NCBI GenBank assembly: GCA_947471505.1 | Contig: CANIWM010000012.1 | Coordinates: 15,867 to 79,866 of the forward strand | Length of the DNA stretch: 64,000 bases | Direction: 5' to 3' | Origin: Chthoniobacteraceae bacterium | Lineage (GTDB): Bacteria; Verrucomicrobiota; Verrucomicrobiia; Chthoniobacterales; Chthoniobacteraceae | Shown: in pieces, positions 5,155 through 60,859 of the stretch | Layout of the letters: every line of letters starts with the position of its first letter | How positions within the stretch are numbered: the first letter of the stretch is position 1 | Notes under the pieces: generated by a model | The model's database searches: none | What the model was told of the DNA's origin: nothing | Seen by the model: only the letters and a program-made list of their open reading frames with translations | Program-made: the position numbers and the translations under genes

Positions 5155-8100
5155 TCAAAAGCCCGTTGCCTTCACCACCGCTGAGTCGCCGAGGCCGAAG
5201 TGGGCGGGCTCATACATTTCCTCCACCTTCGTCGGAGGGGCGGTGGCGGTGCCGGCGGCGCGGACTCTTGCGACGTAGCGCATCTGGTATTTGCCGCTGC
5301 TCCAGGTGTCGGTGAAATAGAGCACGCGATCGGCGCGGATTTCGCGGTGGCTCCACCATGCGTTCGCGAGGTGGTCGCCTTGCGCGGCGGCGGTGCGGAA
5401 CTCGGGGTTCACGGCCTCGAACGTCGCGGGCAGTGGGTCATCAATGACGACGTAGCGGCTGGCTTTGGGCACGGTGATGTCAATGGTCACGAGCACGCGG
5501 TCGCCGACGCGCGGATCGCCGAGTGGGGCGAGCGTGGCGTCGTCGTTGATGCGCTGATAGGTGCGCTCGATGGCGTAGCCGCGATCTTGCCTCTGCGTGA
5601 CGAGCGTCTTCGGGCGGGAGGAAATCGCGACTTGCGTGAAGATGAGCCCTTTCCCCGAAAGCTGGAGCGGCGTCTTGCCGGCGAGCGGCATTTCCTTTTC
5701 AAAAAAGCCGCCCTTTGCTGGCAGCGTGAACGGCGTGGGCGCAGCGCCATACGCGAATGTGGCGGAGGTTTCTTTGCGGCCTGCCTCGGTCTTGCGCACG
5801 TATTCGGCAAAGCCCATGAGCGCCCACACATTGCTCTGCGTGCTGCCCCAGTGGCCCCGCTGGCGCAGCGAAAGGAGGGTGTCGGCGAGTTCGTCGGCAG
5901 CGGGGGATTTTCCGCTGAGCTTCGTCCAAGCGAGCAGCCGGATGCCCTGTGCGCGGGCGGTGCTGCCGAACCAAAAGTCGGCCTCCACAGCCTTATCCTG
6001 CATCCGCATGAGCGAGTCGGCGGTCTTCGCGGAGCCTTTGCTTTCGAGGATTGCGAGGGCGAGTAAAGCGCGGCTTTCTTGCGTGAGCAGGTCGCGCTTT
6101 TTGCTGAGGACTTCGTGGTAAGCGGGCTCCGCGCGGCCCATGAGCGCGAGGGTGTAAGCGGCGAAGACGCGCTCGGAGAGGTGCCATTTATCGTCGGAGT
6201 CCGCCGCGCCACGCAGTGCTTTGCTGAGGTAGTCGCCGAGCCGTTTCACATCGGGAGCAGGCACGGAAAATCCCGCGCGCTCCGCCATGATGAGGCCCAT
6301 GCCACCATACGCGCTGGCCCATTGTTCGCTCCGGTTGCCGGGCCAGTAGCCGAGCCCGCCGTCGCCATTCTGCATGGAAAGAATGCGCGCAACCGCCTTG
6401 TCCACGAGGTCGGTGATTTGCTCTTCGCTGCGGCCCATGCCGGGGAGCATCGGGCGAAATTCGCGCAGCGAAATCCAGGGCAACATGCCGGAGGTCGTCT
6501 GCTCGATGCAGCCGTAAGGATAGTGCAGCAGCTCATGGACGCCTTCGCATAACTCAAAAATGCGCGAGTTCGAAAACCGCACCCGCACTGTGCCCACGCC
6601 TTCGAGCAAGGCTGGGTCAGCGTTGGCGAGGAGGTTTCCTTCGGTGCGGCCTACGAGCACTTCGCCGAGCACGGGCGTCGGCCACGTCACGTTCAGCTTC
6701 GATTCCGTGGCGTCGCGGAAAGCGCCTGCTGGGCTGGTGAAGTTCACCGTCCAAATCCACTTCGCCTCGCCGGGCTCCACGAACTCCACGGGGAAATCCA
6801 CGGCCAACGATCCGCCTGCCGGGAGCTTCACGGTGCGCTCATTCTCGGCGGCTTTCGCGTGTTCGTCGAAGAGCACGGCGACCTTCGCCTCGCCGTCCTC
6901 GGCGGTCGTATTGTGCAGCACGGCGCGGACGGTCATCGCGTCGCCGACGTTGGCGAAGCGCGGCGTGGACGGCTCGATCATCACGGGCTTGTTGATCTCA
7001 AACGCGCTCTCACCGCTGCCAAACTGATCGCGCAATGTCTGCGCCACGGCCATGAGCCGGTAGCGCGTGAGGCCGTCGGGTGCTTTGAAGGTCGTCGCGA
7101 TATTTCCATCGGCGTCCGTTTTCAGCGCGCCGTTCCAATACGCGGTGCCGAGGAAGTTCCGCCGCACGTCGGCCTCGCCGCCTTTCAGCCCGCCTTTTGC
7201 CGCGCCGACGAGGTAGCCTTTGTTTTCAAAGAGCGCGCCTTCCGGGTCGTCGGTGAGCATGTGCGAGAGCGAGATGCCGGTCGTCACGTCGAGCCGCAGC
7301 ATTTGCAGAAAATACGCCAGCACGTCCGGCGTCTGAAAGCCCATGAGGCTCAGCACGCCTTCATCCGAGGCCCAGAGCGTTACCTCCGCGTTGCGCACGG
7401 GCTTTCCGTCGTTGTCGCGCACTTCGCACACGACAGAGACTTCATCGCCGGGACGATACGCGGGTTTGCCGGGGCGCAAGTTCACGTAAAGTTTCGCGTC
7501 GGGCCGCGCGATGGCGAGCTGCGTGTAGCCTGCGCGAAACTCGGGCGATTTGTATTTGCGCGGGCTATCCTGCGCGCCGCGCACGATGATAACGGAGACG
7601 AAGACATTTGGCGCGTCGCCTTCCTCCACGGGGATGCGGATGCTCGGCGCATTGCCCTCCAGCGTGGTGACGAAATGCCGCTTCACATTCTCGCGCTCGA
7701 CCGTGACGAGCGCGCTGCCGCTGATGGGTGTCTTGATCAAAATCACAGCTTCCTCGCCGGGCCGGTATTCCTTTTTGTCCGGCACCAGCTCGACCTGCGA
7801 CTTGTTGCGGTAGTTCCAAGTGAGCGCGTCTTTTCCCCACACATGCACCGCCGTCGTGGTGATGACGTTGCGGCCCGTCGCATCCGTCGCGACGGCGGAG
7901 AGCAAGTAAAGACCGGGCTTCGCGACGGTAAATGTCGTGTCCTTCTTCGCGTCGGCGGCGAGCACCCAATCGCCCGCTTTCTCCACGAGCGGCTGTGTGC
8001 GCAACGTGGCTTGGCCGACGAATTGCAGCACTGGCTCGCTGCGGAAGTTCTCCGCTTCATCGGCATCCTACACACGGTTCGTCTGCCACTCGACGCGGGT

Positions 8101-13913: not shown

Positions 13914-14891
13914 ATGAATCCCACATCACTCGCCACAGCGCCCCGTGTGTTCACCCGGCGCGCATTCATCTCCACGGCAGCACTGCTCGCTGGCGGATGC
14001 TCGCCGGACCCCGTTCCTCGGCTTCGGATTGGGACGTTCACTTTCCCAGGCTACGAGCCTCTTTTCCTCGCGAGGTCGCTGGGGAAGCTGGATGAGAAGC
14101 GGGTGCAACTGCTGGAGTTCCCCACGGTGGCAGAGGCGCTTTTGGCGTTCAAAAATCGGGCGATAGACGGGCTGACGGTTACGCTCGATGACGTGCTGCG
14201 CCTCGCGCAAGCCGGGCACGAGCCGAGGATCGTGCTCATGCTCGACTACTCGGACGGCGCAGACGTGATCGTCACAAAGCAGACCACCGCCGACATTGAA
14301 GCACTACGCGGGCAGCGCGTCGGCGTGGAGACGAACTCGGTCGGTACATTTGTGCTCGCGCGGGCGCTGGAGACGAAAGGGATGAAGATCGACGATGTGC
14401 GTTCCATCTCTTTGCGGGCAGACCGAATCGAGGGCGCATTTCTTCGAGGGGAACTGGAAGCGGTGGTGACGTATGAGCCGTATCGAAGCAGGCTGATCGC
14501 TCGCGGAGGGCGAGAGATTTTCGACAGCCGCGCGCTCAACGGTGAAATCGCCGATGTGCTTGTGTTCCGGCGCGAGGGGATCGAAGCGCAGCGCGCAAAC
14601 ATCGCGCTGGCGGTGAAGGGCTGGCGTAGCGCGCTCGAATATATCCGCACCCAACCGAACGACGCTCTGGCGCGCATGGCTCCGCGCGAGGGGCTCTCGG
14701 CAGAGCAATTTGGCAAGGCGATCCAGTTGATCCATCTCTACACGAGCGACGAGAATCGGGCGTTGCTCTCGCCGGGAGATTCCGCATTGGCGGAGAAGCT
14801 GCGGAAGATTGCGGCCTTTCTCGAAGAGCAGAAATTTCTGCCGCCCGGTGTGGATGTATCGGTCCTGCGCGACGGGAGTTTTTCGCTATGA
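13914..14891 (+). CDS. periplasmic substrate-binding protein, NMT1/SsuA/TauA-like (ABC-type nitrate/sulfonate/bicarbonate family), probably a lipoprotein
   Basis: Signal with LAGGCS lipobox-like motif and a type 2 periplasmic-binding fold. The ORF overlaps the downstream sensor kinase gene by 4 nt (ATGA). Confidence 0.7.
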   Translation: MNPTSLATAPRVFTRRAFISTAALLAGGCSPDPVPRLRIGTFTFPGYEPLFLARSLGKLDEKRVQLLEFPTVAEALLAFKNRAIDGLTVTLDDVLRLAQAGHEPRIVLMLDYSDGADVIVTKQTTADIEALRGQRVGVETNSVGTFVLARALETKGMKIDDVRSISLRADRIEGAFLRGELEAVVTYEPYRSRLIARGGREIFDSRALNGEIADVLVFRREGIEAQRANIALAVKGWRSALEYIRTQPNDALARMAPREGLSAEQFGKAIQLIHLYTSDENRALLSPGDSALAEKLRKIAAFLEEQKFLPPGVDVSVLRDGSFSL

Positions 14892-17197
14892 AGTTTCCAC
14901 CACCACTTCGGATTTGGATTCCGCTCGCCGTCTTTTGCTTTGTCGCATTCGTAGGTTTTTTCGCTGCGATTTATGAGCGGAGGACGGAGGATCGCGCGAT
15001 TGAGGCGAGCACAAGAACGCGGGTACATGCGCTCGGCACGAAGGTGGCGTCCATGGCGTCGTTCCTCGTGGAGATGGATTCGCTCACGGGCGTGCGCCGC
15101 GAGGTGAGCCTTTCCGCGGCGCTGCCGGATGTGGAGCAAGTGACGGTGCTAGGGCCGGGCGATGTGGTGATGTTTGCGAACCGGCAGGAGCAGATGGGGC
15201 TCCCGCTGGCAAAGAGCATCGCAGCGCTGTACGCTGAACTGATCGCCCAAGCTCGCACATCGGGCGGCGGGCGCGTGGGGCTATCTCCAGACCGCGAGCA
15301 CATCATCGGCGCGTTCCCCTTTCCATACGTGAGTGCGGTAGCAGGGGTGAAGCAGGGCGGCGTCGGCGTAGTACTGCTGACCATCGATGTATCCACAGCG
15401 AAAGCGGTCGCGGCGGGTGCGACTCAGCGCCGGATGCTTTACAGCGGCCTGATCTTTCTCGGCCTTGGCGCGCTGATGGCGCTGATCTTTCACCGGATGC
15501 TGACGTCGCGCGTCCAGCATCTGGTGAAGACCTCCCAGCAACTCGCGACGGGCGACCTCTCGGCTCGCGCGGCGCTGGAAGGGGGCGATGAGATCGCCGA
15601 CCTTGGCCGCGCGTTCGACGACATGGCGGCGCAGCTAGAGCACCGCGATGCGATGCTTGTGGCGACGGAGCAGCGCTTCCGGCAGATCGCCGAGAACATC
15701 GAGGAGATATTTTGGTCATACGATCTACAGACGCATCGGATGCTCTTCGTCACGCCTGCGTTTGAGCGGATTCTCGGCGTCAAAATCGACCCCACAGTGG
15801 GTGCGAATATGCAGTGGATCGCCGCGCTGCATCCCGAAGACAAAGAGCGAGTCGCGGCGGCGTTTTCCGACGAGCAAAACGGGCGCGAGGAGATCGAATA
15901 CCGCATCGTCCGCCCCGATGGCACTGTGCGCTGGATGCGCGACCGATGCTTTATCATCCGTGGAAAAGGCGGCGCGGCAGAGCGTGTCGCGGGCATCGCC
16001 TCGGACATCACCGAGCACCGCTTGGCCGTGGAGGAAAAGGCGGCGTTCGACCGGAAAATCCAGGAGACCCAGCGGCTCGAAAGTCTCGGCGTGCTCGCTG
16101 GCGGAATTGCGCACGATTTCAACAACCTGCTAACCGGCGTGCTTGGCTACGCCAGCCTCTCGAAGATGAGCCTCTCTGCCACGGACAAAGTGCAGACCTT
16201 CCTCACCGAGATCGAAAATACCGCCGTGCGCGCCGCCGATTTGTGCAAGCAGATGCTCGCCTACTCGGGCAAGGGCCGCTTCGTCGTGCAGTTGCTGGAC
16301 GTGAGCGCCCTCGTCCACGAGACGACGCAACTACTTCACCTCTCCATCGCCAAGAATGTCGTCCTTCGGTTAAACCTCAGCAAAGACCTGCCGCCCATCA
16401 AAGCCGACCCCACGCAACTCCGCCAAGTAGTGATGAACCTCGTCATCAACGCCAGCGAAGCCCTCGGCGACAAGAGCGGCACCATCTCCCTCACCACCGG
16501 AATCGTCCGCGTAGATGCTGAGTATCTCGACAGCACCGTGCTCTCCGAGCGACTCCCCGAGGCCGACTACATCTTCATCGAAGTCGCCGACAACGGCTGC
16601 GGCATGAGCGCAGAAACCAAAGCGCGGATTTTCGAGCCCTTCTTCACCACCAAATTCACCGGGCGCGGCCTCGGCCTCAGCGCCGTCCTCGGTATCGTGC
16701 GCGGGCACCACGGCGCGATGAAGGTTTATTCCGAGCAGGGAAAAGGCACGATGTTCAAGCTCCTCTTCCCCATCGCAGAAGGCCACGCCGTGCCGCTCTC
16801 CGCGGTCGCCGACGGCGAATCTGCATTTCGCGGCTCGGGGTTTATCCTCGTCGTGGATGATGAGGAGACCGTCCGCACCGTCAGCGCCCGTTTGCTGGAG
16901 GCGCTCGGCTTCTCCGTCATCCTTGCCCAAGACGGCGGCGATGCCGTGGAGAAGTTCAAAGCCCGCCGCAGTGAAATCCGCGCCGTCCTCATGGACCTCA
17001 CCATGCCGCACATGAACGGCGAAGAAGCGTTCCGCCACCTCCGCGCCATAGACCCCGACGTGCGCGTGCTGCTCATGAGCGGATTTAGCGAACAGGAAGC
17101 CGTCAACCGCTTCACCGGCAAAGGACTCTCCGGCTTCATCGAAAAACCATTCCGCTCGGAATCCCTCCGAGCAAAACTGATGGCCATCGGGTTGTAA
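14888..17197 (+). CDS. hybrid sensor histidine kinase (TM-HAMP-PAS-HisKA-HATPase-receiver)
   Basis: N-terminal TM helices, PAS-like region, phosphorylatable H-box (IAHDFNNLLTGVLGY), HATPase G-boxes (DNGCGM, GRGLGLS) and a C-terminal receiver domain (LVVDDEETV...LMDLTMP). Confidence 0.85.
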   Translation: MKFPPPLRIWIPLAVFCFVAFVGFFAAIYERRTEDRAIEASTRTRVHALGTKVASMASFLVEMDSLTGVRREVSLSAALPDVEQVTVLGPGDVVMFANRQEQMGLPLAKSIAALYAELIAQARTSGGGRVGLSPDREHIIGAFPFPYVSAVAGVKQGGVGVVLLTIDVSTAKAVAAGATQRRMLYSGLIFLGLGALMALIFHRMLTSRVQHLVKTSQQLATGDLSARAALEGGDEIADLGRAFDDMAAQLEHRDAMLVATEQRFRQIAENIEEIFWSYDLQTHRMLFVTPAFERILGVKIDPTVGANMQWIAALHPEDKERVAAAFSDEQNGREEIEYRIVRPDGTVRWMRDRCFIIRGKGGAAERVAGIASDITEHRLAVEEKAAFDRKIQETQRLESLGVLAGGIAHDFNNLLTGVLGYASLSKMSLSATDKVQTFLTEIENTAVRAADLCKQMLAYSGKGRFVVQLLDVSALVHETTQLLHLSIAKNVVLRLNLSKDLPPIKADPTQLRQVVMNLVINASEALGDKSGTISLTTGIVRVDAEYLDSTVLSERLPEADYIFIEVADNGCGMSAETKARIFEPFFTTKFTGRGLGLSAVLGIVRGHHGAMKVYSEQGKGTMFKLLFPIAEGHAVPLSAVADGESAFRGSGFILVVDDEETVRTVSARLLEALGFSVILAQDGGDAVEKFKARRSEIRAVLMDLTMPHMNGEEAFRHLRAIDPDVRVLLMSGFSEQEAVNRFTGKGLSGFIEKPFRSESLRAKLMAIGL

Positions 17198-18269: not shown

Positions 18270-18788
18270 CTAATCCGCCTTTTTAGCAGGCTTCGCGTCT
18301 TCTTTCTTCGCGGGTTTAGCATCGTCCTTCTTTTCTGCTTTTGGGCCGAACTTCGTGATCTTCACCACTTCATATTCGGTGCCGTCTGCATTCTTCTTGG
18401 TGCGGAGGCCAGCGACGGTGTCGCCAGCCTTGATGTCCTCGAACTTCGCAGCAGCGTCACCGTTTTTGATCTCGGTGGTCGCCGTCACGATATGTTTCAC
18501 GAGTTTGCCTTCCTTAGTTTTCTGTGTGAACGACTTCCCAGCAGCATCGATCTCGTCGGCGCGGGCGTTCATGGGTTGAGGCTTGGCGGCCTTCGCGTCG
18601 TCTTTCTTCGCGTCAGCGGCAGGAGCAGCGGCAGGAGCGTCGTCCTTCTTTGCATCAGCGGCTGGAGCAGCAGGAGCGGCTGGCGCTGCGGCTGGTTTAG
18701 CGGCTTCTTTTTTCTTCGCTTGCGCGAATGCGGAAGGCCCGACTGAGAGAGCGAGGCCGAGTGTGAGACTGAACAGGATTTGTTTCAT
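18270..18788 (-). CDS. secreted low-complexity Ala/Pro/Lys-rich protein
   Basis: Clear signal peptide MKQILFSLTLGLALSVGPSAFAQA, followed by repeats (KKDDAPAAAPAADAKKDDAKAAKP), then a small globular region. Own terminator downstream. Confidence 0.65.
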   Translation of the reverse strand: MKQILFSLTLGLALSVGPSAFAQAKKKEAAKPAAAPAAPAAPAADAKKDDAPAAAPAADAKKDDAKAAKPQPMNARADEIDAAGKSFTQKTKEGKLVKHIVTATTEIKNGDAAAKFEDIKAGDTVAGLRTKKNADGTEYEVVKITKFGPKAEKKDDAKPAKKEDAKPAKKAD

Positions 18789-19222
18789 GGGTTTGTTTGT
18801 TTGTTGTTTTGTGAGGCGCGCCAGCAGGCCCGGAGAGGGCGCTAATCTCGCGCCCGTCCGCTCTAGTCCCCGGTTTTTGGTGGGTCAAGCGAGAATCATC
18901 ACCGCGCACCGCATTTTTCCGCGGGCGATTCTCAGGGTTGCCGCCGCAGCGCCCCGATCCGATCCACCATCCTGGCAACAGTTGTTATCACCCCCCATTT
19001 ACGCCGAAGGCGTTGGGGTTCGGAAGGCTGAACCCTCCGGGTAAGAATCACGCTCATTGAGCGAGATTGGAAATCTCGCCTCCTCTGCGCTCGATTGCGC
19101 GGGCTATCCACATACGGCGGCCCCTCTACTTCACGGCATTTGTCCACTTTACCCTCCCGCTCTCTGTTAGCCGGCCGTGGAACGTCCTTGTTCCACGGAG
19201 AAATGGGCTTTTTCTCTGATGG

Positions 19223-19255
19223 CATATACTCATTCCGTCACAGAATGAGTATATG
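19223..19255. promoter_or_regulatory. perfect 13-7-13 palindrome CATATACTCATTC-N7-GAATGAGTATATG (candidate operator)
   Basis: Read directly from the sequence. The half-site GAATGAGT(A/T)T is the core of the downstream direct-repeat array. Confidence 0.5.
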
Positions 19256-19537
19256 CGGGGGCGGAATCTGTTTAATCTGCGAGTGGATGGGTTTAGGGCA
19301 GGATGGAATCTGCTTTGGCTGCGGCAGGATGAGTTTAACCTGCGAGGGGATGAGTTTAGGGCGGGATGAAATCTGTTTTGGCTGCGACAGGATGAGTTTA
19401 GAATCCGACGGAATCCATTTAGCCGCCAATCGAATGAGTTTAGGAAACGAGGGAATGAATTACGGAGGGAAACTCATGGGTATATTTTGCAACGGAATGA
19501 ACTGCATTTCCGGCGGAATGGGTTGTAAAGTAGTGCG
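19256..19537. repeat. array of about 13 degenerate direct repeats with ~21-bp period (core GGATGAGTTTAGG / GAATGNNTTTA)
   Basis: Includes two 63-bp higher-order copies at about 90% identity (19277-19339 and 19340-19402), each made of three 21-bp subunits. Located in an ~890-bp intergenic region between divergent genes. Confidence 0.7.
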
Positions 19538-19608
19538 AATAGTAGCGGGGCCGTCTCGGCCCCGAGCGACACTGTGTGTCGCAGGGGGCGGGACGCACCC
19601 TCTACTTC
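19538..19608. repeat. GC-rich multi-hairpin module (AATAGTAGCGGGGCCGTCTCGGCCCC...), copy 1 of 2 in this window
   Basis: Contains the hairpin GGGGCCG-TCT-CGGCCCC and the palindrome GCGAC...GTCGC. Copy 2 at 43958-44043 shares 26 of 27 nt (one extra C in copy 2) over 43958-43984. Confidence 0.6.
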
Positions 19609-19678
19609 CGCGCATTATTTTACCGCTCACCGCGCGCCGAGCGTGCAACGCGCAACTTCTTCCGGTAGGAGGCGGGGC

Positions 19679-20641
19679 ATGAAACTCATCGCGTCCGTCT
19701 TTTTCGCCACGACTTGCCTCGCTACTGCGCTGGATGCGCCCAAGTTTGACCGTAATGGGGCAGGGGAGATCACGGTGGCGGCACCGGAGGGTGCGCACGT
19801 TCGCTATACGATTGATGGGTCTGCGCCGGGGGCGAAATCAGGACCGTATCTCGCGCCTATTCGGCTCGCGACGGGCCGGAAGGTGCAGGCGGTTTCTGTG
19901 AGCGCGGACCGGAAGACGGTGAGCGAGCCCGCTGTGCTGGAGGTCGCGCCTGCGCCGGATGCGAAGCCGCTCCCTTCGACGCTGGTGCCTTGCACGCAGG
20001 ACCGGGATTTCCCCACTTACGATTGGGCGATCCGCCATGCGCAGGTGACGGAACTTACGGCGAAGAAGAAGGCGTCGCTGGTGTTCATCGGCGATAGCAT
20101 CACGCAGATGTTCGGCGGCGAACCGCATGATCGCGGGCAGCCGGGGAAGGCGGTGTGGGAGAAATTCTACGGGGCGCGCAATGCGACGAACTTGGGCTTT
20201 GGCTACGACTACGTGGAGAACACGCTGTGGCGTCTCCAGCACGGCGAGCTGGACGGCGCAGCGGCGAAGGCGGTGGTGGTGAACATCGGGACGAACAACA
20301 TGGGCAAGAATTCGCCGGAGGAAATCTTCGAGGGCGTGAAGGCGGTGCTCGGCGAAGTGCGGCGCAGTCAGCCAGCGGCGAAGGTGCTGCTCCTCGGCAT
20401 CTACCCACGCGGCGCGAAACCCGACGCGACCCGCGAGAAGGTGGCGAAGACCAACGTGCTACTTGCGACGCTCGACGGGAAAGACGGCGTCATTTTCCAA
20501 GATGTGACGGCGAAGCTCTTGGAGCCGGATGGGAGTATCTCGAAGGAGATGATGGGCGACTTTCTGCACCCCACGGCGAAGGGCTATGAGGTCATTGCAG
20601 ACGCGATCGAGCCTACGCTGAAGAAGCTGCTGGGGGAGTAG
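19679..20641 (+). CDS. SGNH/GDSL hydrolase family protein with N-terminal chitobiase/hexosaminidase C-terminal-like (CHB_HEX_C) domain
   Basis: Signal peptide MKLIASVFFATTCLATA, CHB_HEX_C-like stretch (HVRYTIDGSAP), GDSxT block (VFIGDSITQ) and a C-terminal DFLHPT block. Confidence 0.8.
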   Translation: MKLIASVFFATTCLATALDAPKFDRNGAGEITVAAPEGAHVRYTIDGSAPGAKSGPYLAPIRLATGRKVQAVSVSADRKTVSEPAVLEVAPAPDAKPLPSTLVPCTQDRDFPTYDWAIRHAQVTELTAKKKASLVFIGDSITQMFGGEPHDRGQPGKAVWEKFYGARNATNLGFGYDYVENTLWRLQHGELDGAAAKAVVVNIGTNNMGKNSPEEIFEGVKAVLGEVRRSQPAAKVLLLGIYPRGAKPDATREKVAKTNVLLATLDGKDGVIFQDVTAKLLEPDGSISKEMMGDFLHPTAKGYEVIADAIEPTLKKLLGE

Positions 20642-24891: not shown

Positions 24892-25829
24892 CGGAGCAGA
24901 ACCTTGCCAGCCCGCTTCGACTGCTGCGCGTGCGCGAGAGCCTGCGCGATTTCCGTGAGCGGATAGGTCGCCTCTATCGGTGTCGAGATGATGCCCTTCC
25001 GCAGAAGCTCGAATAGCTCATCGAAAAGCGCCGCGCGCTGCTCCGCCGAAGCCCGCGCATACCACCGCGTCACCCAAAAACCTCGCCACACGATGTCGTT
25101 GAAAATGAGCAGCCCATTGGGAACCTTGAGCGGCTGCCGAGCCATCGCGCCGTAAGTCACGATGGTCCCACCATCCGAGAGCCGCCCCGCCAGTCGCACC
25201 GCGCTATCGCCACCGACCGCATTTAGCGCCAGCCGCACCGGGAGCTCGCCCGGCTCATCCAAAAACACCGCATCCGCGCCCTCCGCCAACAGCTCGTCCA
25301 CCAACTCCGCGCGCCGCACCACATTCGCAGATCGCCAGCCGTAATGCCGACACATCTGGATGACACACCGCCCCACCGCCGAGTTCGCCGCATTTTGCAA
25401 AACCCATTCGTTCGGCTCCAGCCGCACAAACTCCCGCAACATGCACAGCGCAGTCGCCGGGTTGATCCGCAGCATCGCCGCCTGCGCGAGCGGAACATCG
25501 TCTGGCACGCGCACCAGCTCCGCCGCACAAACATTCCCCGCCTCGCGCCACGTGCCGAAACGATGCGGCAAGAGTACGCGCGTCCCCGCGTCGAATCCCT
25601 CGCCTGATTCTTCGACGACGCCTACACCCTCCACGCCCGGGACGCCGCGCAACTCAGGCCGCACGGGATATTTCCCCTCCAGCACATTGATGTCCGCAGG
25701 ATTGATCGGCGCAAAGAGCACGCGCACGCGCACGTCGCCCGGCGCAGGTGGTGCAAGCTCGACCTCGCAGCAGCGTGCGACTGCCGCTGGTTCACCGTGT
25801 TCGGAAAGGAGAATCGCTTTAGTTTTCAT
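24879..25829 (-). CDS. MDR-family zinc-type/quinone oxidoreductase (enoyl reductase-like)
   Basis: GroES-like N-terminal domain plus Rossmann NAD(P)-binding fold (LQNAANSAVGRCVIQ). Its start overlaps the stop of the giant upstream gene (TGATG). Confidence 0.75.
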   Translation of the reverse strand: MKTKAILLSEHGEPAAVARCCEVELAPPAPGDVRVRVLFAPINPADINVLEGKYPVRPELRGVPGVEGVGVVEESGEGFDAGTRVLLPHRFGTWREAGNVCAAELVRVPDDVPLAQAAMLRINPATALCMLREFVRLEPNEWVLQNAANSAVGRCVIQMCRHYGWRSANVVRRAELVDELLAEGADAVFLDEPGELPVRLALNAVGGDSAVRLAGRLSDGGTIVTYGAMARQPLKVPNGLLIFNDIVWRGFWVTRWYARASAEQRAALFDELFELLRKGIISTPIEATYPLTEIAQALAHAQQSKRAGKVLLRCSE

Positions 25830-28800
25830 CAGTCTTTCGAGGTCTGTTTTGCTTTGTCGGCTTCAATGAGCTCCCAAATCTGCCGGAGCGTCTCGGTAGA
25901 AATCGACACCTCCCGCAGTGCAGCACCCATATCCTCATTGGACGCTTTGGGCGGAGGCGGTGAGGATGGTGGCGTCATGAAAAGGGTGATCGGCTGCGCG
26001 AGGATGGGTGCGGGTTTGCTGAGAGCTTTTGCAAAGACACCGCCGAGTTCGCCGAGCGAGTCTTGCAGCGCGGTGAGTCGCTCGACAACCTGCACCATTG
26101 GGTCTTTGCCGTCGGCCCCCCGGAAGAGCTGGTTCTTGCGGAACGTCTTTTTGATTTCCTCCCAGCGTGCGGATTCCTCGGGCGTGATGGTGCCGGTGAG
26201 TTCCTTGAACTTCAGCAAGTTTGCTTCGGTGCCGGTGGTGAGCGTCTGCGCTTCGTTGCGGTAGTAAGTTTGCAGCAGCGATTCGAGTTCTGCATCGTTC
26301 ATCACGGGCGAGATTTTCTCCGCGAGTCGGCCCATGTTGCGGTAGCTGCCTTGCAGCTTGAATGCGGGCTCCGTGCGGAATGCGTCGGACTGCGCCGCGC
26401 TGCGGATGTATTCCTCGTTCACTCGCAGCACGACATCACGGGCGCGGATGAGCTTCTTCATCACGCCGAGAAATTCCGCCTGCTCGACAGGCGACCAATT
26501 GCTCTCAAAGTCCGCGCCTTCCGTGCTGCCAGTCTCGGCGATCTTGAGCACGGCGAGGATGTCTTGTTGCGAACGCGCAGCGAGCCGGGCGAGTGTAGGG
26601 TTCGATCCCGCTGCGTTTTCGAGGTAGCTGGATTTAAAAGCATCCGCGTGCGCTCCGACGACATCGCCGAGATTGTACGTGTCAGCACGATTCGCGAGCA
26701 TGTCGGGGATTTTGAACTTCTCGCCGCTCTCGGTGTACGGGTTTCCGGCCATCACCACGATGACCTTTTTGCCCCGCAAATCCCACGTCTTCGACTTGCC
26801 GCGCCACACGCCCTCGATGCGCCGCGAGCCGTCGCACAGCGAGATGAACTTCTGCAAAAACTCCGCGCTGAGATGCTGGATGTCGTCGAGACAGACCATC
26901 ACGTTGTCGCCCATCTCGAACGCGAGCCCGAGCTTCTCCATCTCATCGCGAGCCGCAGCATTCGGAGCCTCTGTCGGGTCGAGCGAAGTGACGCTGTGCC
27001 CAATCGCAGGACCGTTGATCTTCATAAACACGATGCCGAGCCTGCTAGCGACATACTCGACGAGCGTAGTCTTCCCATAACCCGGTGGCGAAATGAGCAG
27101 CAGCATGCCCATGCGGTCCGTGCGTTTCGCGTCGCCCGCCGCGCCGATTTGCTTCGCGAGATTGTCGCCCACGAGCGGCAGATACGCGGAGTCAATGAGC
27201 CGGTTGCGGATGAAACTCGTGAGCACCTTCGGTTTAAACCCATCGAGCTTCAGCCGCTCCCGCGCCGCCTCCAGCAGCGTGCGCTTTAGCGAAACGAAGC
27301 GTGTGTAAAGCGGGACGACGTTCGTTTCGTGGCAGCGCATCCGTGCGGAGAAATCGAGGTAGTCGAGCCGAAGCACGCCATTCGAGATGCGTGAGTGCGA
27401 GCCATTCATCCCGGCAAGTTCGCGCACCGCCGAGGAATGGATCGTCGCTGCAACCGTCGAGTTGCGCAGGGTAAGCGCCGCCGCCTCATCCAAAAAAAGA
27501 TGCTCACCCGCATGAGCACGCAGCCAATTCCGAATGAGAGAAAACTCAGCGTGCATGTCGGCGGATACAGCCTTGCGAGCGTCTTTGAAAGCACCCGCGC
27601 CAGCCCGCTCAACGAGGTGCGCGTGGAAGCTATCAACCAGCGTCACGGCCTCCGGTGCAGCCGGGAAAACTCCATCGCCGGAGAGGACGTGGAAAAGAAA
27701 CTCAGCCGCCGGTCCATCAAGTCCATTCTGTCCATCTCGTCCATAAACTGGATGGACGGCATGGACGTTATGGACGATCTCCCCCAACAGCTCCGCCGCC
27801 GGAGCCTGCTGCTCAAAGAACCGCCCCATCGCTCCAAAGCCTTTGAGCTTCGCCGAGAGCAGTGCCTTCGCCTCGCCGTCTGGCAGAGCCGCCCAAGCAA
27901 GCACCGCCTGCGTGCGAGCCTGCGTATCGTAGCGAAGCAGTCCGAGCGTGCGCCGCATTTCCACGACCGCTTCCACGATCTTTGCAGCGTCCAGATCGTG
28001 GACGCCCTTAATGTAGCCCTCGCCAAGCCGAGTCGCGGCGAACTCGGTTGTGGTGCAGGCGACCTCGCCTGCATCTGTCCTGACCGGCGACTCGCCGGAA
28101 CTTCGGGTGGGTCGCCCGTGCGACTGCTGCAGGCGAGTCGCCTGCGCCACTACCAGCCACGCCAGCCACTCGGCGCGATAAACCTCCGCAGTCTCTGAAA
28201 CGCTCTCCAAGCTCCACACAGCCTTCGTTTCCGCAAAGGCTGCATCCTCGATAGGCTCGAAGAAATTCGTCCCGGTGATGTGCAGGCACATCGCATCGCC
28301 GCGCTGAACGATGGTGAGGTCCAGCTCCTGCGTGTTGACCAAAAACTGATGCCGCCCGAGCTGAATCGCGCCGCTGCCTCCGGCAAATAGATCGCGCCGG
28401 TCCTTGAATTGCCGCACCGCATCTTCACGGATGGTTTTCAGTCGGCTGCCGAGGTCGTCGGCCTTCGTGGAATCGCCGAGCGCGACCAACTGCGCGGTAA
28501 GGTCGCGCACTTTCTCCACCATCATATCGCTGGCGAAGTAGGCGTTGATTTCATCCAGCCCCGGCAGGCTATCCGCACGGTGCTTGATGCCCTTCAGGAT
28601 GCGCTCCGCCGCTGACATCAAGCCATTCGCACGACGATTGCGGGCTTCGATGAGTTCGAGTTTACGAGACTCAAAAGCCCCGGCAAAAGCGGTGCGCTTG
28701 TCCGCTAGTTCGCCGACAAATTCCTCGAAGTCCGCAAACCGCGCTTCGAGTTCTTCGACCTGAACCATCAGCTTGTTTAGGAACTCATCGCACTTCTCCG

Positions 28801-30910
28801 GCGTCGCGCTGAGGTCGAGATAGTTTGCGAGCGCCTGATCCAGCAGCCGCTGCTGGGACGCAAATTCCGCCACCGCTTCCGTGCCGCGCAAATCGCGGAT
28901 GCGCTGCCGCAGCCCCGACCTCGCCTGATTCAGCGTGGCGTAAATGCCGGAGACGTCTTCGATTATCAGCGTCGTCTCCGTGGCGTCGGAGATTTTGAGG
29001 TTGCCGACCGTCTCCACTAGCAAATCGAGGTCTTTGGCTGCGGCGGCGATTTCCTCGTCGAGCTTCTGCGCATCCGCGACCTTCGGCATCTTCGGAACCG
29101 TTTCGCGCAGGATGGAAACCTTGGCCCGCAGTGGGTCGAGCGACTGCGGCGCGAGGAGAAATTGCACCGTGCGCTCAGCCAGCGCGGTGCTCGTGGCGGC
29201 GACCTCCTGCTCTGTTTTATCCACGAGTGCAGCGTCCACGTAGCGCAGTTCCCTGAGCGAAATCAGCTCGCCTCGCGCTGACCGTAGCGCCGCCAGCTTC
29301 TCTACAAAGTGCCCGATTTGATCAAAAGCCTGCGTCTGCAGCGCCCGCAAAATCGCTGTCGCTTTTTCCACCACGCGCTGCGTCTCGGTCGCGGTGTTGA
29401 GCTTGATCGCCGTGACCTTGTCAAACTCCGCCAGCGCCGCTGCCGCCGTCTCTTTAATCGCAGCCAGCGGTTCGCGCAGCGCAAACGCTTCGGCACGGTC
29501 CAGCCAGAAATACGTGTCGAGGATGTCCGTAGTTCGCTTCACCAAATCGAGGTAGAGCCCAGCGTAGCTGTCGTCCTTGCCGAGCAGCGTCAATATTTCA
29601 CCGCACTCGGCCATTGCTCGCACGACGGTCGGATTTCCGAGTTTAAAAAGGTAGCTGTCGTTCTTCGTCGGCGGTTGCCAATCCGCGCCGACGAAAGGCG
29701 TCTGCCAAATCTGCACGACGTGGTGTCTCTGCGGCTCCGGTCCAGCGCGGAAGACCGCCAACTCGCCGCCCTCGAACAGCGAAAAACCGTGACAGATGAG
29801 CGGCGTATCGCACTGCCGGGCGATGACGTTGTAGCCGAACAGCACGTAAGTCCCGCTGTCGCGCTCGTAGAACACGAACAGCGTGTCTTCGCCGTTGGGC
29901 GAGGCGATGCGCTTGTGGAAAACGAGCCCTTCCAGCGCCGTCTCGAACTCCTTGTGCTCGCCGCTTTGCAAGTAGTAGCCGCGTGGGTGGATGATGCCGT
30001 GACCGTCCGGCAGCAACACGCACGCCTCCTCAAGCGAATCAATGCGCAGCACCTCGCGGAGCTTTTCGTTGAAGACCAAATAGCGCGTCTTTTTTTCCTG
30101 ATACGGGCGGATGCGCAGCAGGATCAAATTGCCCAGCGAGGCGTGGAAAATCTCCGCGTCATCAAGCGTTTGGTCGCGCTGCTCGACGGGCTCGGAGTAA
30201 ATGCCAGCGCCGCTCGCCGTGTTATCCTCCACTTTCACCGTGAGGTCGCCGCCGACGCACTCGACGAACACCCGGTCCTCGATGCTGATGTGCGGATGCT
30301 GCCCCGCGCGGTGCTGCTCGCGCGTCGCGCGCTTCCACTCAAATTCGTGCTGCGGCGGGTAGAGATATTCGTGGTCGAACCGATTGCCGAGATACCGCAC
30401 CGGCGAGCCATCGCAAAGCCACTTACACGTCTTCACGTCCGTCACCGTCTTGCCCACGCGAAATTCCATGAACATGTGCGGCCCACGCACCGAGAGCTTC
30501 GAGAGCGCCGTGCCTTTGTAATAGCGGTAGAGCGACTTGAAATCCGCCTCAAATTGAGCATCCGCCAGCTCATCCAGCGGAAGTGCGGAAAAGGCGCGGT
30601 CCTTGTACTGGTAAAGTGCGAAGACATCCGCAAGCTGCGTCTCACTGCGCAGCCCAAGTTGCACATTGTAGCCAAAAACAAACCGTCCACCGCCGATGTG
30701 GCGCATGTCGCGAGGCGTGCAACTATTCTCCGTCGTGAGCCGCTCCGTAGCCACTAACGCTGTCGGTATCGCGCCAAACACATCCTGTCGCGAGGCGTTC
30801 AATTTCCCGAGTCGTTCGCGCAGCTCGGAGCCGTGCGAGTTCAGCCGGGCCCGAAGGATTTCGTAGGTGCCTTGCTCGAGTTTCTGCGGCGGAGCGTCGT
30901 TATCAGCCAT
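25829..30910 (-). CDS. giant (1693 aa) protein with a single C-terminal AAA+ ATPase module (AAA_5 / MoxR-McrB-dynein-like); N-terminal ~1300 aa uncharacterised
   Basis: Walker A LLLISPPGYGKTTLVEYVA, Walker B VMVCLDDIQH, sensor-1-like VVMAGNPYTESGEKFKIPDMLANRADTYNL. Long coiled-coil-prone segments. One uninterrupted ORF with consistent codon usage. Confidence 0.8.
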   Translation of the reverse strand: MADNDAPPQKLEQGTYEILRARLNSHGSELRERLGKLNASRQDVFGAIPTALVATERLTTENSCTPRDMRHIGGGRFVFGYNVQLGLRSETQLADVFALYQYKDRAFSALPLDELADAQFEADFKSLYRYYKGTALSKLSVRGPHMFMEFRVGKTVTDVKTCKWLCDGSPVRYLGNRFDHEYLYPPQHEFEWKRATREQHRAGQHPHISIEDRVFVECVGGDLTVKVEDNTASGAGIYSEPVEQRDQTLDDAEIFHASLGNLILLRIRPYQEKKTRYLVFNEKLREVLRIDSLEEACVLLPDGHGIIHPRGYYLQSGEHKEFETALEGLVFHKRIASPNGEDTLFVFYERDSGTYVLFGYNVIARQCDTPLICHGFSLFEGGELAVFRAGPEPQRHHVVQIWQTPFVGADWQPPTKNDSYLFKLGNPTVVRAMAECGEILTLLGKDDSYAGLYLDLVKRTTDILDTYFWLDRAEAFALREPLAAIKETAAAALAEFDKVTAIKLNTATETQRVVEKATAILRALQTQAFDQIGHFVEKLAALRSARGELISLRELRYVDAALVDKTEQEVAATSTALAERTVQFLLAPQSLDPLRAKVSILRETVPKMPKVADAQKLDEEIAAAAKDLDLLVETVGNLKISDATETTLIIEDVSGIYATLNQARSGLRQRIRDLRGTEAVAEFASQQRLLDQALANYLDLSATPEKCDEFLNKLMVQVEELEARFADFEEFVGELADKRTAFAGAFESRKLELIEARNRRANGLMSAAERILKGIKHRADSLPGLDEINAYFASDMMVEKVRDLTAQLVALGDSTKADDLGSRLKTIREDAVRQFKDRRDLFAGGSGAIQLGRHQFLVNTQELDLTIVQRGDAMCLHITGTNFFEPIEDAAFAETKAVWSLESVSETAEVYRAEWLAWLVVAQATRLQQSHGRPTRSSGESPVRTDAGEVACTTTEFAATRLGEGYIKGVHDLDAAKIVEAVVEMRRTLGLLRYDTQARTQAVLAWAALPDGEAKALLSAKLKGFGAMGRFFEQQAPAAELLGEIVHNVHAVHPVYGRDGQNGLDGPAAEFLFHVLSGDGVFPAAPEAVTLVDSFHAHLVERAGAGAFKDARKAVSADMHAEFSLIRNWLRAHAGEHLFLDEAAALTLRNSTVAATIHSSAVRELAGMNGSHSRISNGVLRLDYLDFSARMRCHETNVVPLYTRFVSLKRTLLEAARERLKLDGFKPKVLTSFIRNRLIDSAYLPLVGDNLAKQIGAAGDAKRTDRMGMLLLISPPGYGKTTLVEYVASRLGIVFMKINGPAIGHSVTSLDPTEAPNAAARDEMEKLGLAFEMGDNVMVCLDDIQHLSAEFLQKFISLCDGSRRIEGVWRGKSKTWDLRGKKVIVVMAGNPYTESGEKFKIPDMLANRADTYNLGDVVGAHADAFKSSYLENAAGSNPTLARLAARSQQDILAVLKIAETGSTEGADFESNWSPVEQAEFLGVMKKLIRARDVVLRVNEEYIRSAAQSDAFRTEPAFKLQGSYRNMGRLAEKISPVMNDAELESLLQTYYRNEAQTLTTGTEANLLKFKELTGTITPEESARWEEIKKTFRKNQLFRGADGKDPMVQVVERLTALQDSLGELGGVFAKALSKPAPILAQPITLFMTPPSSPPPPKASNEDMGAALREVSISTETLRQIWELIEADKAKQTSKD

Positions 30911-35232: not shown

Positions 35233-35619
35233 TTACGCGGCTTGCTCGGCTGCTTTGGGGGCTTGGTTCAGCACGCGCATGAGGGCGGAGTAGATTTCTG
35301 ATGGGCCGAGGCCTTTGCTGACGTAGCCGTTGGCTCCGGCCTTGCGGGCGGCTTGCATAGCTTCCTCATCGTAGCCAAGGCCGGTGAACATGACGATTGG
35401 CACGAGAGAGAATTTCTCCCGAATCATCGAGATGAGTGAGAGTCCGTCGATTTTCGGCATCCCGATGTCGAGGATGATGGCGTCGCACGGATTGAGGTCG
35501 AGCCAGCTCAGTGCTTTAGTTGGGTCGGTGAGTGAAGAGCATCCGTGACCTTTACTGCGGAGGTAAGTGGTCAGGAAGCGATTAAGTAAGCGATTGTCGT
35601 CAACAACTAGGAAGTTCAT
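35233..35619 (-). CDS. single-domain response regulator (CheY-like receiver)
   Basis: Receiver-domain residues: acidic pocket MNFLVVDDN, phospho-acceptor DAIILDIGMP and conserved Lys in GYVSKG. 128 aa with no output domain. Confidence 0.8.
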   Translation of the reverse strand: MNFLVVDDNRLLNRFLTTYLRSKGHGCSSLTDPTKALSWLDLNPCDAIILDIGMPKIDGLSLISMIREKFSLVPIVMFTGLGYDEEAMQAARKAGANGYVSKGLGPSEIYSALMRVLNQAPKAAEQAA

Positions 35620-37612: not shown

Positions 37613-38274
37613 GCAGGGCCGCCGCGCCGTTGTCCAGCCATGCGGCGGGAAAACGAACTTCCATGCCAGCGGCGCCCATTATTCGATGGCCCATACGATT
37701 CCGCTTGTAGCTGTGTGCGCGAGGACGATGATTCGCGTTGCCAAAGTCGCGTTTCTTCCACAAGGCGCGACACGGGGGACCCAATTGAGGGTGCGCAGGT
37801 CCAAACTGCCACCAGGGGCGCAGGTAGCCAGCCAAATGGCTGCCCGGTGACTTCCTTCACCGAGCCCGTCAGCTAACTCCGTCGGTATAGGGAAGGTGTC
37901 CTAGGGACGCCGTCCGCGGCACTCGCTGCGTACGGGGTCAACCGATGCCTGCAACATCATATTGCTTACTGGCATCGGCGGAAAAATACGCCGGCGGTGT
38001 CCGTTCGCGCACAGACACATACTACATACAGAAAATGAGACATCATCGTCGTGGCCTGCTTGCCGCAGGCTTCATCATCGCCGCATCCACCGCCGACACC
38101 GTTTGGCTTGCATGGGCACAACCTCAAATCGCTACCGGCCTCGCGCTGGATCAGGTCAACGGCGGAGCGCCTGCGTGGCGCGAGCTTCTCGCGTGGCAGG
38201 CGACTCATCAATGGCCGCACTTTGTTGCGCAGGCCGTTGTCGCTGCCACTATTGCGTGGTGGATTCGTCCTATC

Positions 38275-39329
38275 GTGCTCACGTTTCTTCGGGCGAAAAG
38301 CGCGAAGAAAAAGCTGCTCCCGCTGCTTCTCGCAGCCAGCACGCTCGCGGGCTGTGTGAAATCCTACGACAAGCCCGAATACGTCGAGATTGATACCAGC
38401 GAGACGGGCTTCCTCATCCCGCTCGAAGGCAACACCGCCGACCAAGCGAAGTTTGAGAGCGTGGACTACCTCCAAGCTCGGAAAGTCGCAACGAAGCGTG
38501 TGCAAATCGTCCATCGCTGGAACCAAGAAGGTCGCCTCTCCAGCACAGGCCGCTGGTTCCCTACCGTGCGCCTCGTGAAAGTGAACCGCTCGCCCATCAC
38601 GCGCGAGTGGACTGCTGAGGGCAAACACGTCACTGGCGACAAAGCCATCTGGATCGAAAGCGCGGACAGCGTGGGCTTCAGCATGGGCTTCACCTGCACC
38701 GCGTTCATTGATGAAAAAGATGCCGCCACCTTCCTCTATTGGTATCCGAGCGGCAGCCTCGCCACCGTCATGGACGGCGAAGTGCGTGGTCGCATCCAGC
38801 AAGGTGCCGCCGAAGTCGCCGCCCGCTACCCGCTCGACGGGCTGCGCGCCAAAAAACAGGAGATCGTGGACGCTGTAAGACGGACATCACCGCCTTTTTC
38901 ACCACACGCGGTATCACTATCACCACCGTCGGCATGTTCGGCGGAATGACCTACGAGAACCCGGCCATACAGAAGTCCATCGATGAAACCTTCATCGCCC
39001 AGCAGCTCAAAGTCGTCTCCGCAGCGAAGTTTGAAGCGCAGCAAAAAGAGAACGAAATCATCGAACTCGCCGCCAAAGCGAATGCCGAAAAAGCCCGGCT
39101 CGAAGCCAAAGGCAAAGCCGAAGCCCGTCTCGAAGAAGCCAAAGCGGAAGCCGAAGCCATCACCCTCGTCAATAAAGCCGTCGCCAACAGCGGCCCCATG
39201 CTCATGCAAATCCGCCAGCTCGAAGTCGAAAAAGCGCGCGTAGAAAAATGGGACGGCCAATTCCCGCACACGATGTTGGGCGCGAATCCAAACATCCTCT
39301 TCGCCCCTCCGCAGGCCTCTGCGAAGTAA
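38275..39329 (+). CDS. SPFH/band-7-like lipoprotein, reading frame broken by a 1-nt frameshift near 38873
   Basis: GTG 38275 begins MLTFLRAKSAKKKLLPLLLAASTLAGC (lipobox). Homology continues from frame 1 (...KKQEIVDAV) into frame 0 (KTDITAFFTTRGITITTVGMFGG...coiled coil AKAEAEA...). One extra A in GTAAGACG would restore the frame. Confidence 0.55.
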
Positions 39330-50445: not shown

Positions 50446-52562
<2,117 letters not shown>

Positions 52563-60828: not shown

Positions 60829-60859
60829 TCGTAGCTGCGACGAGGGCGTCGCAGCTACG
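60829..60859. terminator. bidirectional terminator hairpin between the CotH gene and convergent purN
   Basis: Perfect 13-bp stem CGTAGCTGCGACG / CGTCGCAGCTACG with loop AGGG. It overlaps the last codons of purN. Confidence 0.5.

Follow-up and report, generated by a model that had tools for sequence, protein, structure and literature searches.

A palindrome and a phased array of 21-bp repeats upstream of a GDSL-type esterase gene in a Chthoniobacteraceae bacterium: a candidate direct-repeat operator in a recombination hot spot

The 64,000-nt stretch of the Chthoniobacteraceae bacterium contig CANIWM010000012.1 (assembly GCA_947471505.1) analysed here, referred to below as the window, carries a perfect palindrome that runs directly into an array of 21-bp direct repeats of its own half-site, upstream of a gene for a GDSL-type esterase. 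The array is real and statistically solid. As a piece of DNA, it is best explained as a young, lineage-restricted and degenerate 21-bp minisatellite residing in a hot spot upstream of the esterase gene; as to its role, we tentatively favour a lineage-specific, expanded direct-repeat operator or platform, from which a regulator encoded in trans would act on the esterase promoter. The features that go beyond those of a plain satellite are the conservation of a 16-nt block in the repeat unit, the lack of indels both within and between alleles, and the retention of the two boxes at the 3' end in a third lineage. The main rival to an operator is a neutral minisatellite, which is weighed below together with four further alternatives.

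The palindrome and the array of 21-bp units

19222–19256, no strand assigned: perfect 14-7-14 palindrome, GCATATACTCATTC-CGTCACA-GAATGAGTATATGC (sequence match and inverted-repeat search)
19256–19528, + strand: 13 head-to-tail 21-bp units, consensus nnnCGAnGG(A/G)AT(G/C)nGTTTAGn (Tandem Repeats Finder, self-identity and 21-mer layout)
19529–19549, + strand: weak 14th unit, AGTAGTGCGAATAGTAGCGGG, with GAAT alone in register (21-mer layout)

The sequence CATATACTCATTC-CGTCACA-GAATGAGTATATG is found at 19223–19255, letter for letter as given in a preliminary description of this DNA, which had called it a 13-7-13 palindrome; the perfect symmetry extends one pair further, to 14-7-14. Perfect palindromes with arms of at least 11 bp number two in the window and none in 18 of 20 shuffled sequences. 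The right arm (19243–19255) stands in register with the array as unit 0, and the left arm is a single inverted unit core, the arm sequence being equal to that core. As single-stranded DNA, the palindrome folds at −12.9 kcal/mol (z = −5.9). The second perfect palindrome of the window (13-4-13, 60830–60859, CGTAGCTGCGACG-AGGG-CGTCGCAGCTACG) separates convergent genes and probably serves as a bidirectional terminator.

The recurrence of the half-site about every 21 bp, also described previously, holds for 13 units and a weak 14th. Self-identity across 19256–19549 peaks at multiples of 21, with values of 0.50, 0.54, 0.59 and 0.51 at lags of 21, 42, 63 and 84, against ~0.25 elsewhere; the period is 21.0 bp, there are no indels among the 13 units, and the A-T at columns 11 and 12 repeats at exactly 21 bp in every one of them as well as in unit 0. 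Tandem Repeats Finder reports a period of 63 bp (19270–19400, 2.1 copies, 89% matches, score 213). The two 63-bp higher-order copies of the preliminary description are present as units 2–4 and 5–7 (19277–19402), although their identity is 87% (8 of 63 positions differ), rather than ~90%. The array is otherwise heterogeneous: many unit pairs differ at 9–15 of their 21 positions, only five units match GGATGAGTTTAGG with at most two mismatches, the remainder being degenerate, and in unit 11 (19466–19486) the core is inverted (AAACTCAT). Across the window, matches to the core with up to three mismatches amount to 13 versus 9.2 expected, and the whole of this excess is the array itself. The 890-bp region that houses it (18789–19678) does lie between divergent genes, as had been stated, and the array reads towards the esterase gene.

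Conservation is concentrated in a block of ~16 nt, CGA-n-GG(A/G)AT(G/C)-n-GTTTAG, which exceeds the 13-mer noted earlier; the spacer columns are free. Counted over 26 units, mismatches to the consensus number 1–4 at columns 6, 9, 11, 12 and 15–17, and 12–18 at columns 1, 2, 3, 14 and 21. The unevenness between columns is marked (chi-square 65.5, p = 1e-6, a figure that is inflated by the shared ancestry of the units).

Allelic variation of the array

The locus has exact copies in GCA_943329735.2 and GCA_947477685.1, which are metagenome-assembled genomes (MAGs), as well as in metagenomes from the KAVA23 and MEHR18 series; judged by the style of these sample names, the source habitat may be freshwater. 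Seven contigs from different samples span the entire 890-bp intergenic region, of which six are identical and one differs by 1 bp.

A second allele, at locus L014, matches the window at 100% over 467 bp that end with the palindrome, itself unchanged, and the identity stops exactly at the right edge of the palindrome. Beyond this point, the L014 array shows 76 substitutions in 273 positions (~28% divergence) relative to the window, with no indel and with its units in register. Both alleles have 13 units, and copy number does not vary among the seven full-length contigs of the window allele, which are possibly clonal. Units 1, 5 and 8–13 are positional orthologues that differ at 1–6 of 21 positions. 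Units 2–7 have been remodelled between the two alleles; in the window, units 2–4 and 5–7 are a 63-bp duplicate or the product of conversion.

A third lineage, represented by L061 and L064 (esterase 90% identical), possesses only the last three units and the hairpins, beginning at TTACGGAGGG at 19459, with unrelated DNA upstream.

19459–19528, + strand: part of the array common to three lineages (window, L014 and L061/L064), starting at TTACGGAGGGAAA (allele alignment)

In the three alleles, TTACGGAGGGAAA, GGAATGA and CGGCGGAATGGGTT are invariant, and the GGAATG boxes at 19494–19502 (GGAATGAAC) and 19515–19523 (GGAATGGGT) are held 21 bp apart. An inverted array upstream in L061 was considered and rejected, the alignment being no better than those of shuffled sequences. 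The contigs of the L061 lineage all end at most 280 bp upstream of the esterase gene.

A candidate expanded operator

We propose, with some reserve, that the ~16-nt block CGA-n-GGAATG-n-GTTTAG, which resembles a recognition sequence and is presented once per two helical turns, would be occupied by a sequence-specific DNA-binding protein encoded elsewhere. Because the period is exactly 21 bp, every site would fall on one face of B-DNA, giving 14–15 sites so disposed. The one inverted copy at the 5' end, which creates the perfect palindrome, could accommodate the protein as a dimer, and along the direct repeats it would associate head-to-tail or otherwise cooperatively. In this role, the array would be an enlarged operator, or a platform upstream of the GDSL promoter, which the variable segment must itself supply. 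The two GGAATG boxes that are kept 21 bp apart in three lineages would represent the original operator, and units 0–10 its amplification in the window and L014 lineages; alternatively, units 0–10 may have been lost in L061. A protein-binding platform, as suggested in the preliminary description, remains the best reading, given the conserved block, the free spacers and the indel-free register; the accompanying idea of a Rep-bound origin is unsupported. That the array is a working, greatly expanded operator (14–15 same-face sites plus a dimer site, filled by a long nucleoprotein filament of a LytTR-like or BldC-like regulator), or that it is a chromosomal sink or decoy by which such a protein, or the Rep of an invading replicon, would be titrated, strikes us as improbable.

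A number of observations weigh against an operator. A Pfam scan, covering 38 of the 39 predicted genes of the window, gave no match to the LytTR domain (PF04397); there is no AraC-type or other candidate regulator within the 64 kb, and no binding protein was identified. The regulatory genes of the window that were considered, encoding a hybrid histidine kinase (14888–17197) and a stand-alone receiver (35233–35619), do not include a DNA-binding response regulator. Within the window, the core is confined to this locus and no regulon is visible; no sigma-70-like promoter is predicted in 18700–19800; and known operators of 21-bp geometry comprise 2–4 sites, not 14. The comparison of orthologous units between the window and L014 is suggestive only: it points to selection on the core, 8 of 72 positions having changed in the conserved columns and 22 of 96 in the variable ones, at an odds ratio of 0.42 and p = 0.066.

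Further points concern the close relatives. In L024, which is ~96% identical to the window and syntenic on both sides, 1.8 kb of unrelated DNA stands in place of 18938–19642 and the array is missing. It is likewise missing from L019, which is 96% identical to the window from 19643 onwards, and from L020, L022, L066 and L068. Given these absences, any function of the array must be dispensable and recent. The preliminary description had reckoned the absence of the array from close relatives with conserved flanks, together with a lack of protein binding, as evidence against a regulatory role; L024 presents the case of such an absence, and a claim of a conserved or essential role is lowered by it.

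A recombination hot spot upstream of the esterase gene

18938–19642, no strand assigned: strain-specific segment (705 bp) containing the hairpins, palindrome, array and direct repeats (comparison with L024 and orthologous loci)
19122–19140, + strand: direct repeat CCCTCTACTTCnnnGCATT, left copy (direct-repeat search)
19175–19198, no strand assigned: hairpin, 10-bp stem, CCGTGGAACG-TCCT-TGTTCCACGG, a little to the left of the palindrome (folding)
19542–19605, no strand assigned: compound G+C-rich hairpins directly after the array, −26.2 kcal/mol, z = −6.2 (folding)
19598–19616, + strand: direct repeat CCCTCTACTTCnnnGCATT, right copy (direct-repeat search)
18270–18788, − strand: gene for an Ala/Lys-rich protein of 172 amino acids with a signal-peptide-like N-terminus (sequence analysis)
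19679–20641, + strand: gene for the GDSL-type esterase, with a CHB_HEX_C domain (Pfam)

On the evidence of these alignments, the interval between the gene for the 172-residue protein and the esterase gene is a recombination hot spot, occupied by different DNA in each lineage. The homology of all other orthologous loci to the window starts only at ~19641–19657, and in L024 the whole segment has been substituted, rather than the repeats merely lost. On the left, the 150 bp upstream of the gene for the 172-residue protein are conserved in L024, which lacks the array. On the right, the upstream sequence that the esterase gene has in common with its relatives amounts to only 36 bp before the ATG, and for this reason the GDSL promoter is placed in the variable segment, downstream of the array. 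Homologues of the esterase carry the names Chthoniobacter, Pedosphaera, Limisphaerales or Verrucomicrobia. The hairpins at 19542–19605 show small changes in L061, and an A/T hairpin takes their place in L014.

The corresponding interval of L024 (5534–7354) contains genes for small membrane proteins, including one with DUF2335, and also, as second copies, the ribosome-binding site of the GDSL gene with its first codons (6524–6599; 89% match to window 19630–19705) and, inside an open reading frame (ORF), the left junction sequence, CCGCATTTTTCCG(C/T)GGGCGATTCTCA. In L019, the hot-spot interval corresponds to 1–1114. By sequence comparison, the turnover looks like cassette exchange by recombination at short repeats. 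Additionally, a tyrosine recombinase (Phage_integrase plus a SAM-like N-terminal domain) is encoded at L020 1080–1970, in the lineage whose esterase is 87% identical, 1.5 kb upstream of the GDSL gene and beyond a gene for a trypsin-like protease; it may be a housekeeping Xer recombinase, or it may be linked to the hot spot.

A neutral minisatellite could arise in such a setting: slippage or unequal exchange would have amplified a 21-bp unit in an intergenic region of fast turnover, and the palindrome would be an accidental inverted duplication of one unit. On this view, nothing that matters binds to the array, which would in time disappear again. The array is missing from L024 with both flanks kept and from five other orthologous loci, each lineage is different at 18938–19642, and L024 has duplicated junction sequences; moreover, there has been a recent 63-bp higher-order duplication or conversion. 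Arrays of 21 bp with many different sequences are common in genomes, no relative of this one was found in the JGI metagenomes, viral contigs, plasmids or phages, and neither a binding protein nor a regulon nor a promoter can be demonstrated for it. Several observations speak against a neutral origin: column conservation is strongly uneven, no indel has arisen despite heavy divergence within and between alleles, copy number is the same in two alleles and in seven full-length contigs of the window allele, and the last two boxes are kept in the third, more distant lineage. We regard neutrality as possible, if somewhat unlikely.

A recombination or mobile-element feature, in which the palindrome would be a recombinase or transposase target, or a hairpin end, and the array the subterminal sites of a small non-autonomous element (~19118–19616) bracketed by CCCTCTACTTC repeats, would also suit a segment that is strain-specific. 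It would explain why window/L014 identity stops exactly at the right edge of the palindrome, and the putative element has the appropriate ornaments: the 19-bp CCCTCTACTTCnnnGCATT direct repeats bracket the hairpin, palindrome, array and hairpins (two matches versus 0.02 expected), and a 13-nt inverted pair lies at 19118–19130 and 19541–19553. No longer version of the flanking direct repeat is found, as only ~19 bp align well. Set against this, the palindrome, the core and the flanking repeat do not recur outside the site, either in the window or in the fetched loci, and the segment encodes no transposase or integrase. The palindrome has no match in the JGI metagenomes or viral contigs, and it was accordingly rejected as a multicopy element. 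The fact that 7 of the 18 locus contigs end at or next to the palindrome would fit an element boundary, although breaks at palindromes are an ordinary effect of short-read assembly too. Taken together, these points make a mobile element a slim prospect.

The seven contigs in question (L003, L004, L006, L008, L016, L017 and L018), all from short reads, terminate within or next to the palindrome at window 19202–19234, and their overlaps there are of ~k−1 bases. The palindrome and repeats could have produced these ends as an artefact of assembly; real strain heterogeneity could also lie behind them.

Coding potential and RNA structure

An ORF (19095–19682) traverses the array; from the ATG at 19245 to the TGA at 19682, it would encode a Cys/Gly-rich heptad peptide, MSICGGGICLICEWMGLGQDGICFGC. 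In favour of a protein-coding heptad repeat, this frame is open through the array, overlaps the GDSL start in an ATGA, and in L014 remains open as far as unit 12; in such a 21-bp unit, however, two frames out of three are open by construction. The coding interpretation was rejected for want of homologues, for its very poor codon usage and for its lack of third-position bias, and is effectively refuted. Among 5.8 billion proteins, no relative was found other than the ORF itself. The codon log-odds are −0.41, compared with 0.15–0.51 for 32 reference genes of the window, the G+C content at third codon positions is 0.56 (0.58–0.81 in predicted genes), and TTA (1.1 per 1000 codons) and AGT (2.7 per 1000), which are among the rarest codons here, occur in every unit. 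Differences between the window and L014 alleles are distributed as 29, 20 and 27 over codon positions 1, 2 and 3.

The array might instead act as RNA, either as a non-coding transcript or as a long 5' leader of the GDSL messenger, in which the repeated single-stranded motifs GGAUGAGUUUAGG would sequester an RNA-binding protein in the manner of CsrB or RsmZ. Most units contain GGA or GGAUG, and the + strand is rich in G (GC skew +0.4); by inspection, the GGA of B-type units can be placed in the loop of a hairpin, whose copies differ by A-U to G-U changes; and hairpins bracket the array, the 401-nt + strand folding better than its shuffles (z = −3.1). Yet the − strand folds equally far above its shuffles (z = −4.0), and for both strands this would be expected from the palindrome and the flanking hairpins. 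The GGA is lost in 3 of 13 L014 units, where GTTTAG is kept, so that GGA is not the conserved element; hairpins form in B-type units only and most units are without them; and in unit 11 of L014, a substitution of C by G disrupts the pairing of this unit with the direct cores and is uncompensated. Moreover, strict 21-nt spacing would not be expected of a sponge, whose usual attributes (GGAs in loops, a discrete transcript with promoter and terminator, an Rfam family) are not found: Rfam gives no match at the gathering threshold or at E values up to 10, no promoter is predicted, and no intrinsic terminator is predicted on the + strand around the array. We consider an RNA sponge or leader very unlikely. 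Antisense pairing of the core GATGAGTTT with GDSL codons 2–4 (AAACTCATC at 19682) was likewise dismissed as chance, since 8 other gene starts and 91 of 500 shuffles reached or exceeded its local-alignment score of 18.

A structured RNA does occur elsewhere in the window, namely, a cyclic di-AMP (ydaO/yuaA) riboswitch at 37729–37902 (+), which scores 48.5 bits against a gathering score of 38 and precedes an ORF of 334 amino acids (37945–38949) without a Pfam domain. A second 21-bp tandem repeat (43449–43618; ~6.7 copies of the type AATCCGGCAACGTGAATGTTA) sits inside an ORF of 1404 amino acids (42170–46384; DUF7133/cytochrome c) and is probably a coding heptad repeat.

Chromosomal context and the question of a replication origin

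The genes of the window are those of a housekeeping chromosome: they include QueG, isocitrate dehydrogenase, aminopeptidase P, a dihydroorotase-like protein, a formyltransferase and an aminotransferase, together with a type II secretion system F protein, alpha-2-macroglobulins and the hybrid histidine kinase. A ParE-family toxin gene is located at 1401–1718, and a DUF3686/AAA ATPase of 1693 amino acids, labelled in Pfam as 'ATPase involved in DNA repair', at 25829–30910 (−).

An origin of replication, as had been entertained for this array, is not supported, there being no Rep or Par genes, no DnaA-box cluster, no skew switch and no likeness to plasmids or phages. Among the 38 genes scanned, none encodes Rep, ParA/ParB or a ParR-like protein, or parM with its adaptor. 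The DnaA-box-like 9-mer noted previously does exist, although two positions further on than the 19102–19110 reported:

19104–19112, + strand: CTATCCACA, DnaA-box-like 9-mer with one mismatch, isolated and not part of a cluster (motif scan)

It is the only box near the array that matches at 8 of 9 positions; the 14 one-mismatch boxes of the window are scattered. DnaA-box 9-mers with at most one mismatch are ~3.6 times commoner than in shuffled sequences (14 versus 3.9), and an exact box, TTATCCACA, is found at 50861–50869. The G+C content falls to a minimum of 0.475 in the array region, as against 60% for the genome, and the + strand is G-rich at the array, the local skew arising from the repeat itself. 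The preliminary description had suggested a check of skew for origin function; there is no sustained switch at 1-kb resolution. A blastn search in distant mode detected no similarity to 72,556 plasmids or 50,697 phages.

A replicon-related origin of the repeats (as the iterons of a vestigial integrated plasmid, a site of incompatibility or handcuffing, a par site resembling a centromere, or a chromosomal decoy titrating the Rep of an invading plasmid) is difficult to sustain and, in our estimation, highly improbable. Its appeal lies in the form: iteron origins have tandem direct repeats of 17–22 bp at a spacing of ~21–22 bp, and here 13–14 units are set at exactly 21 bp; the local drop in G+C to 0.48 and the one 8-of-9 DnaA box are also in keeping. 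The rest is lacking: no adjacent Rep gene, AT-rich unwinding region, set of several DnaA boxes, skew switch or replicon similarity accompanies the array, and in the window it does not stand beside the parA/parM and adaptor operon expected of a parC/parS-like centromere. Furthermore, the surrounding chromosome is a housekeeping one, and the array is missing in close relatives.

Searches for similar arrays

No convincing relative of the array was encountered in the JGI metagenomes, viral contigs or 185,579 species genomes. A two-unit pattern that includes the CGA hit only two unrelated AT-rich contigs in the JGI metagenomes, with two units each. The genome scan yielded 30 loci, among them ~9 arrays of 21-bp units in phyla that are unrelated to one another. 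The idea that GGAATGnGTTTAG arrays form a family extending across phyla was rejected, since by a rough estimate for 596 Gb the count does not rise above chance. One of the arrays, from the Leptospirales, consists of AAGCAAAAAGAGAATGAGTTT, reads KQKENEF and may be coding.

Similar intergenic arrays are present at three loci of the Bacteroidetes MAG Umea1_bin-1585 (L046 6245–6560; L052 5985–6230, − strand; L053 2398–2566 and 2699–2921). Their core, GGAATGCGTTTAGG, is close to the GGAATGAGTTTAGG of the window; they have a common 3' flank, GTGCGGTTTTTAGTTAAAATTT...GTTTTAGTTAAAGTTT, and TAGTGCG follows the last unit, as it does in the window. That genome is full of 21-bp arrays of other sequences, also at the same loci, and the neighbouring genes are unrelated. 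The arrays are probably a multicopy repeat element of that genome, and their likeness to the window may be due to chance; we treat it as a curiosity, not as homology.

Implications and comparison with known systems

Were the array to be an expanded operator or a sink, one freshwater lineage of Verrucomicrobia would have had the expression of a secreted esterase rewired by a recent amplification of sites in a recombination hot spot. If a regulator binds, an operator would here have grown naturally from two to ~15 sites within one lineage. Such a case would lend itself to asking how cooperativity, or the titration of a regulator, depends on the number of sites and on their helical phasing, and for an uncultured freshwater Verrucomicrobium it would open a first way into the control of transcription. 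Should the array be neutral instead, its importance would be confined to marking strains and to causing breaks in assemblies. In neither case is a long-standing open question touched.

The spacing is that of LytTR-type operators, in which direct repeats of ~9 bp are separated by 12 (11–13) bp, and the array does present one core per 21 bp. The core TGAGTTTAG fits eight of the nine positions of the broad LytTR consensus, [TA][AC][CA]GTTN[AG][TG]. A 9-bp box plus a 12-bp spacer, and therefore a 21-bp period, is the standard geometry of this class (PMC4005675, PMC6193735). As for ComE, AgrA and HdrR/BrsR, the site precedes a gene whose product is secreted; unlike their operators, it has no LytTR gene within 64 kb. 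Known LytTR operators have two, rarely three, repeats, ~10 bp (~4–11 bp) upstream of the −35 element, whereas the array has 14–15 in addition to a palindrome.

Variable numbers of direct repeats are also bound by BldC, which oligomerizes head-to-tail on them (PMC5859096), and a comparable case is RemA on repetitive DNA (PMC8481266). The likeness resides in sites that vary in number, share one orientation and one face of the helix, and are served by one small filament-forming protein. BldC sites, however, recur every helical turn, with the sequence AATTnnnn(C) and in sets of 2–4; the array in the window has 14 sites, with another core and at intervals of two turns.

Resemblance to plasmid iterons is greater in layout than in context. 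Iteron origins, such as those of pPS10, pSC101 and F, combine direct repeats at about two helical turns with an inverted repeat of the iteron sequence. The window has the same arrangement as those with an inverted-repeat operator (pPS10, pSC101, F, P1 and Vibrio chromosome II), namely, tandem repeats beside an inverted repeat of the same sequence, and where the iteron origins provide monomer sites and a dimer site for one protein, the array shows the same layout (for the form of such origins, see PMC3401445 and PMC5397158). In contrast to them, it has no initiator gene, DnaA-box cluster or AT-rich unwinding element, and it is a strain-specific feature of a housekeeping chromosome without plasmid or phage homology.

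Finally, head-to-tail units, a higher-order duplication, an intergenic position and a presence that varies between strains are traits held in common with bacterial intergenic minisatellites (variable-number tandem repeats, VNTRs, for example, of the MIRU type); here, too, head-to-tail repeats are present in one strain and absent from a close one. Unlike those of VNTRs, the units of the window are old and degenerate and yet strictly in phase, show no copy-number polymorphism between the two alleles or among the possibly clonal contigs compared, and are conserved in specific columns. Overall, whether viewed as phased direct-repeat sites or as a minisatellite with an inverted copy, the array is of a known kind, and is a fresh example of it.

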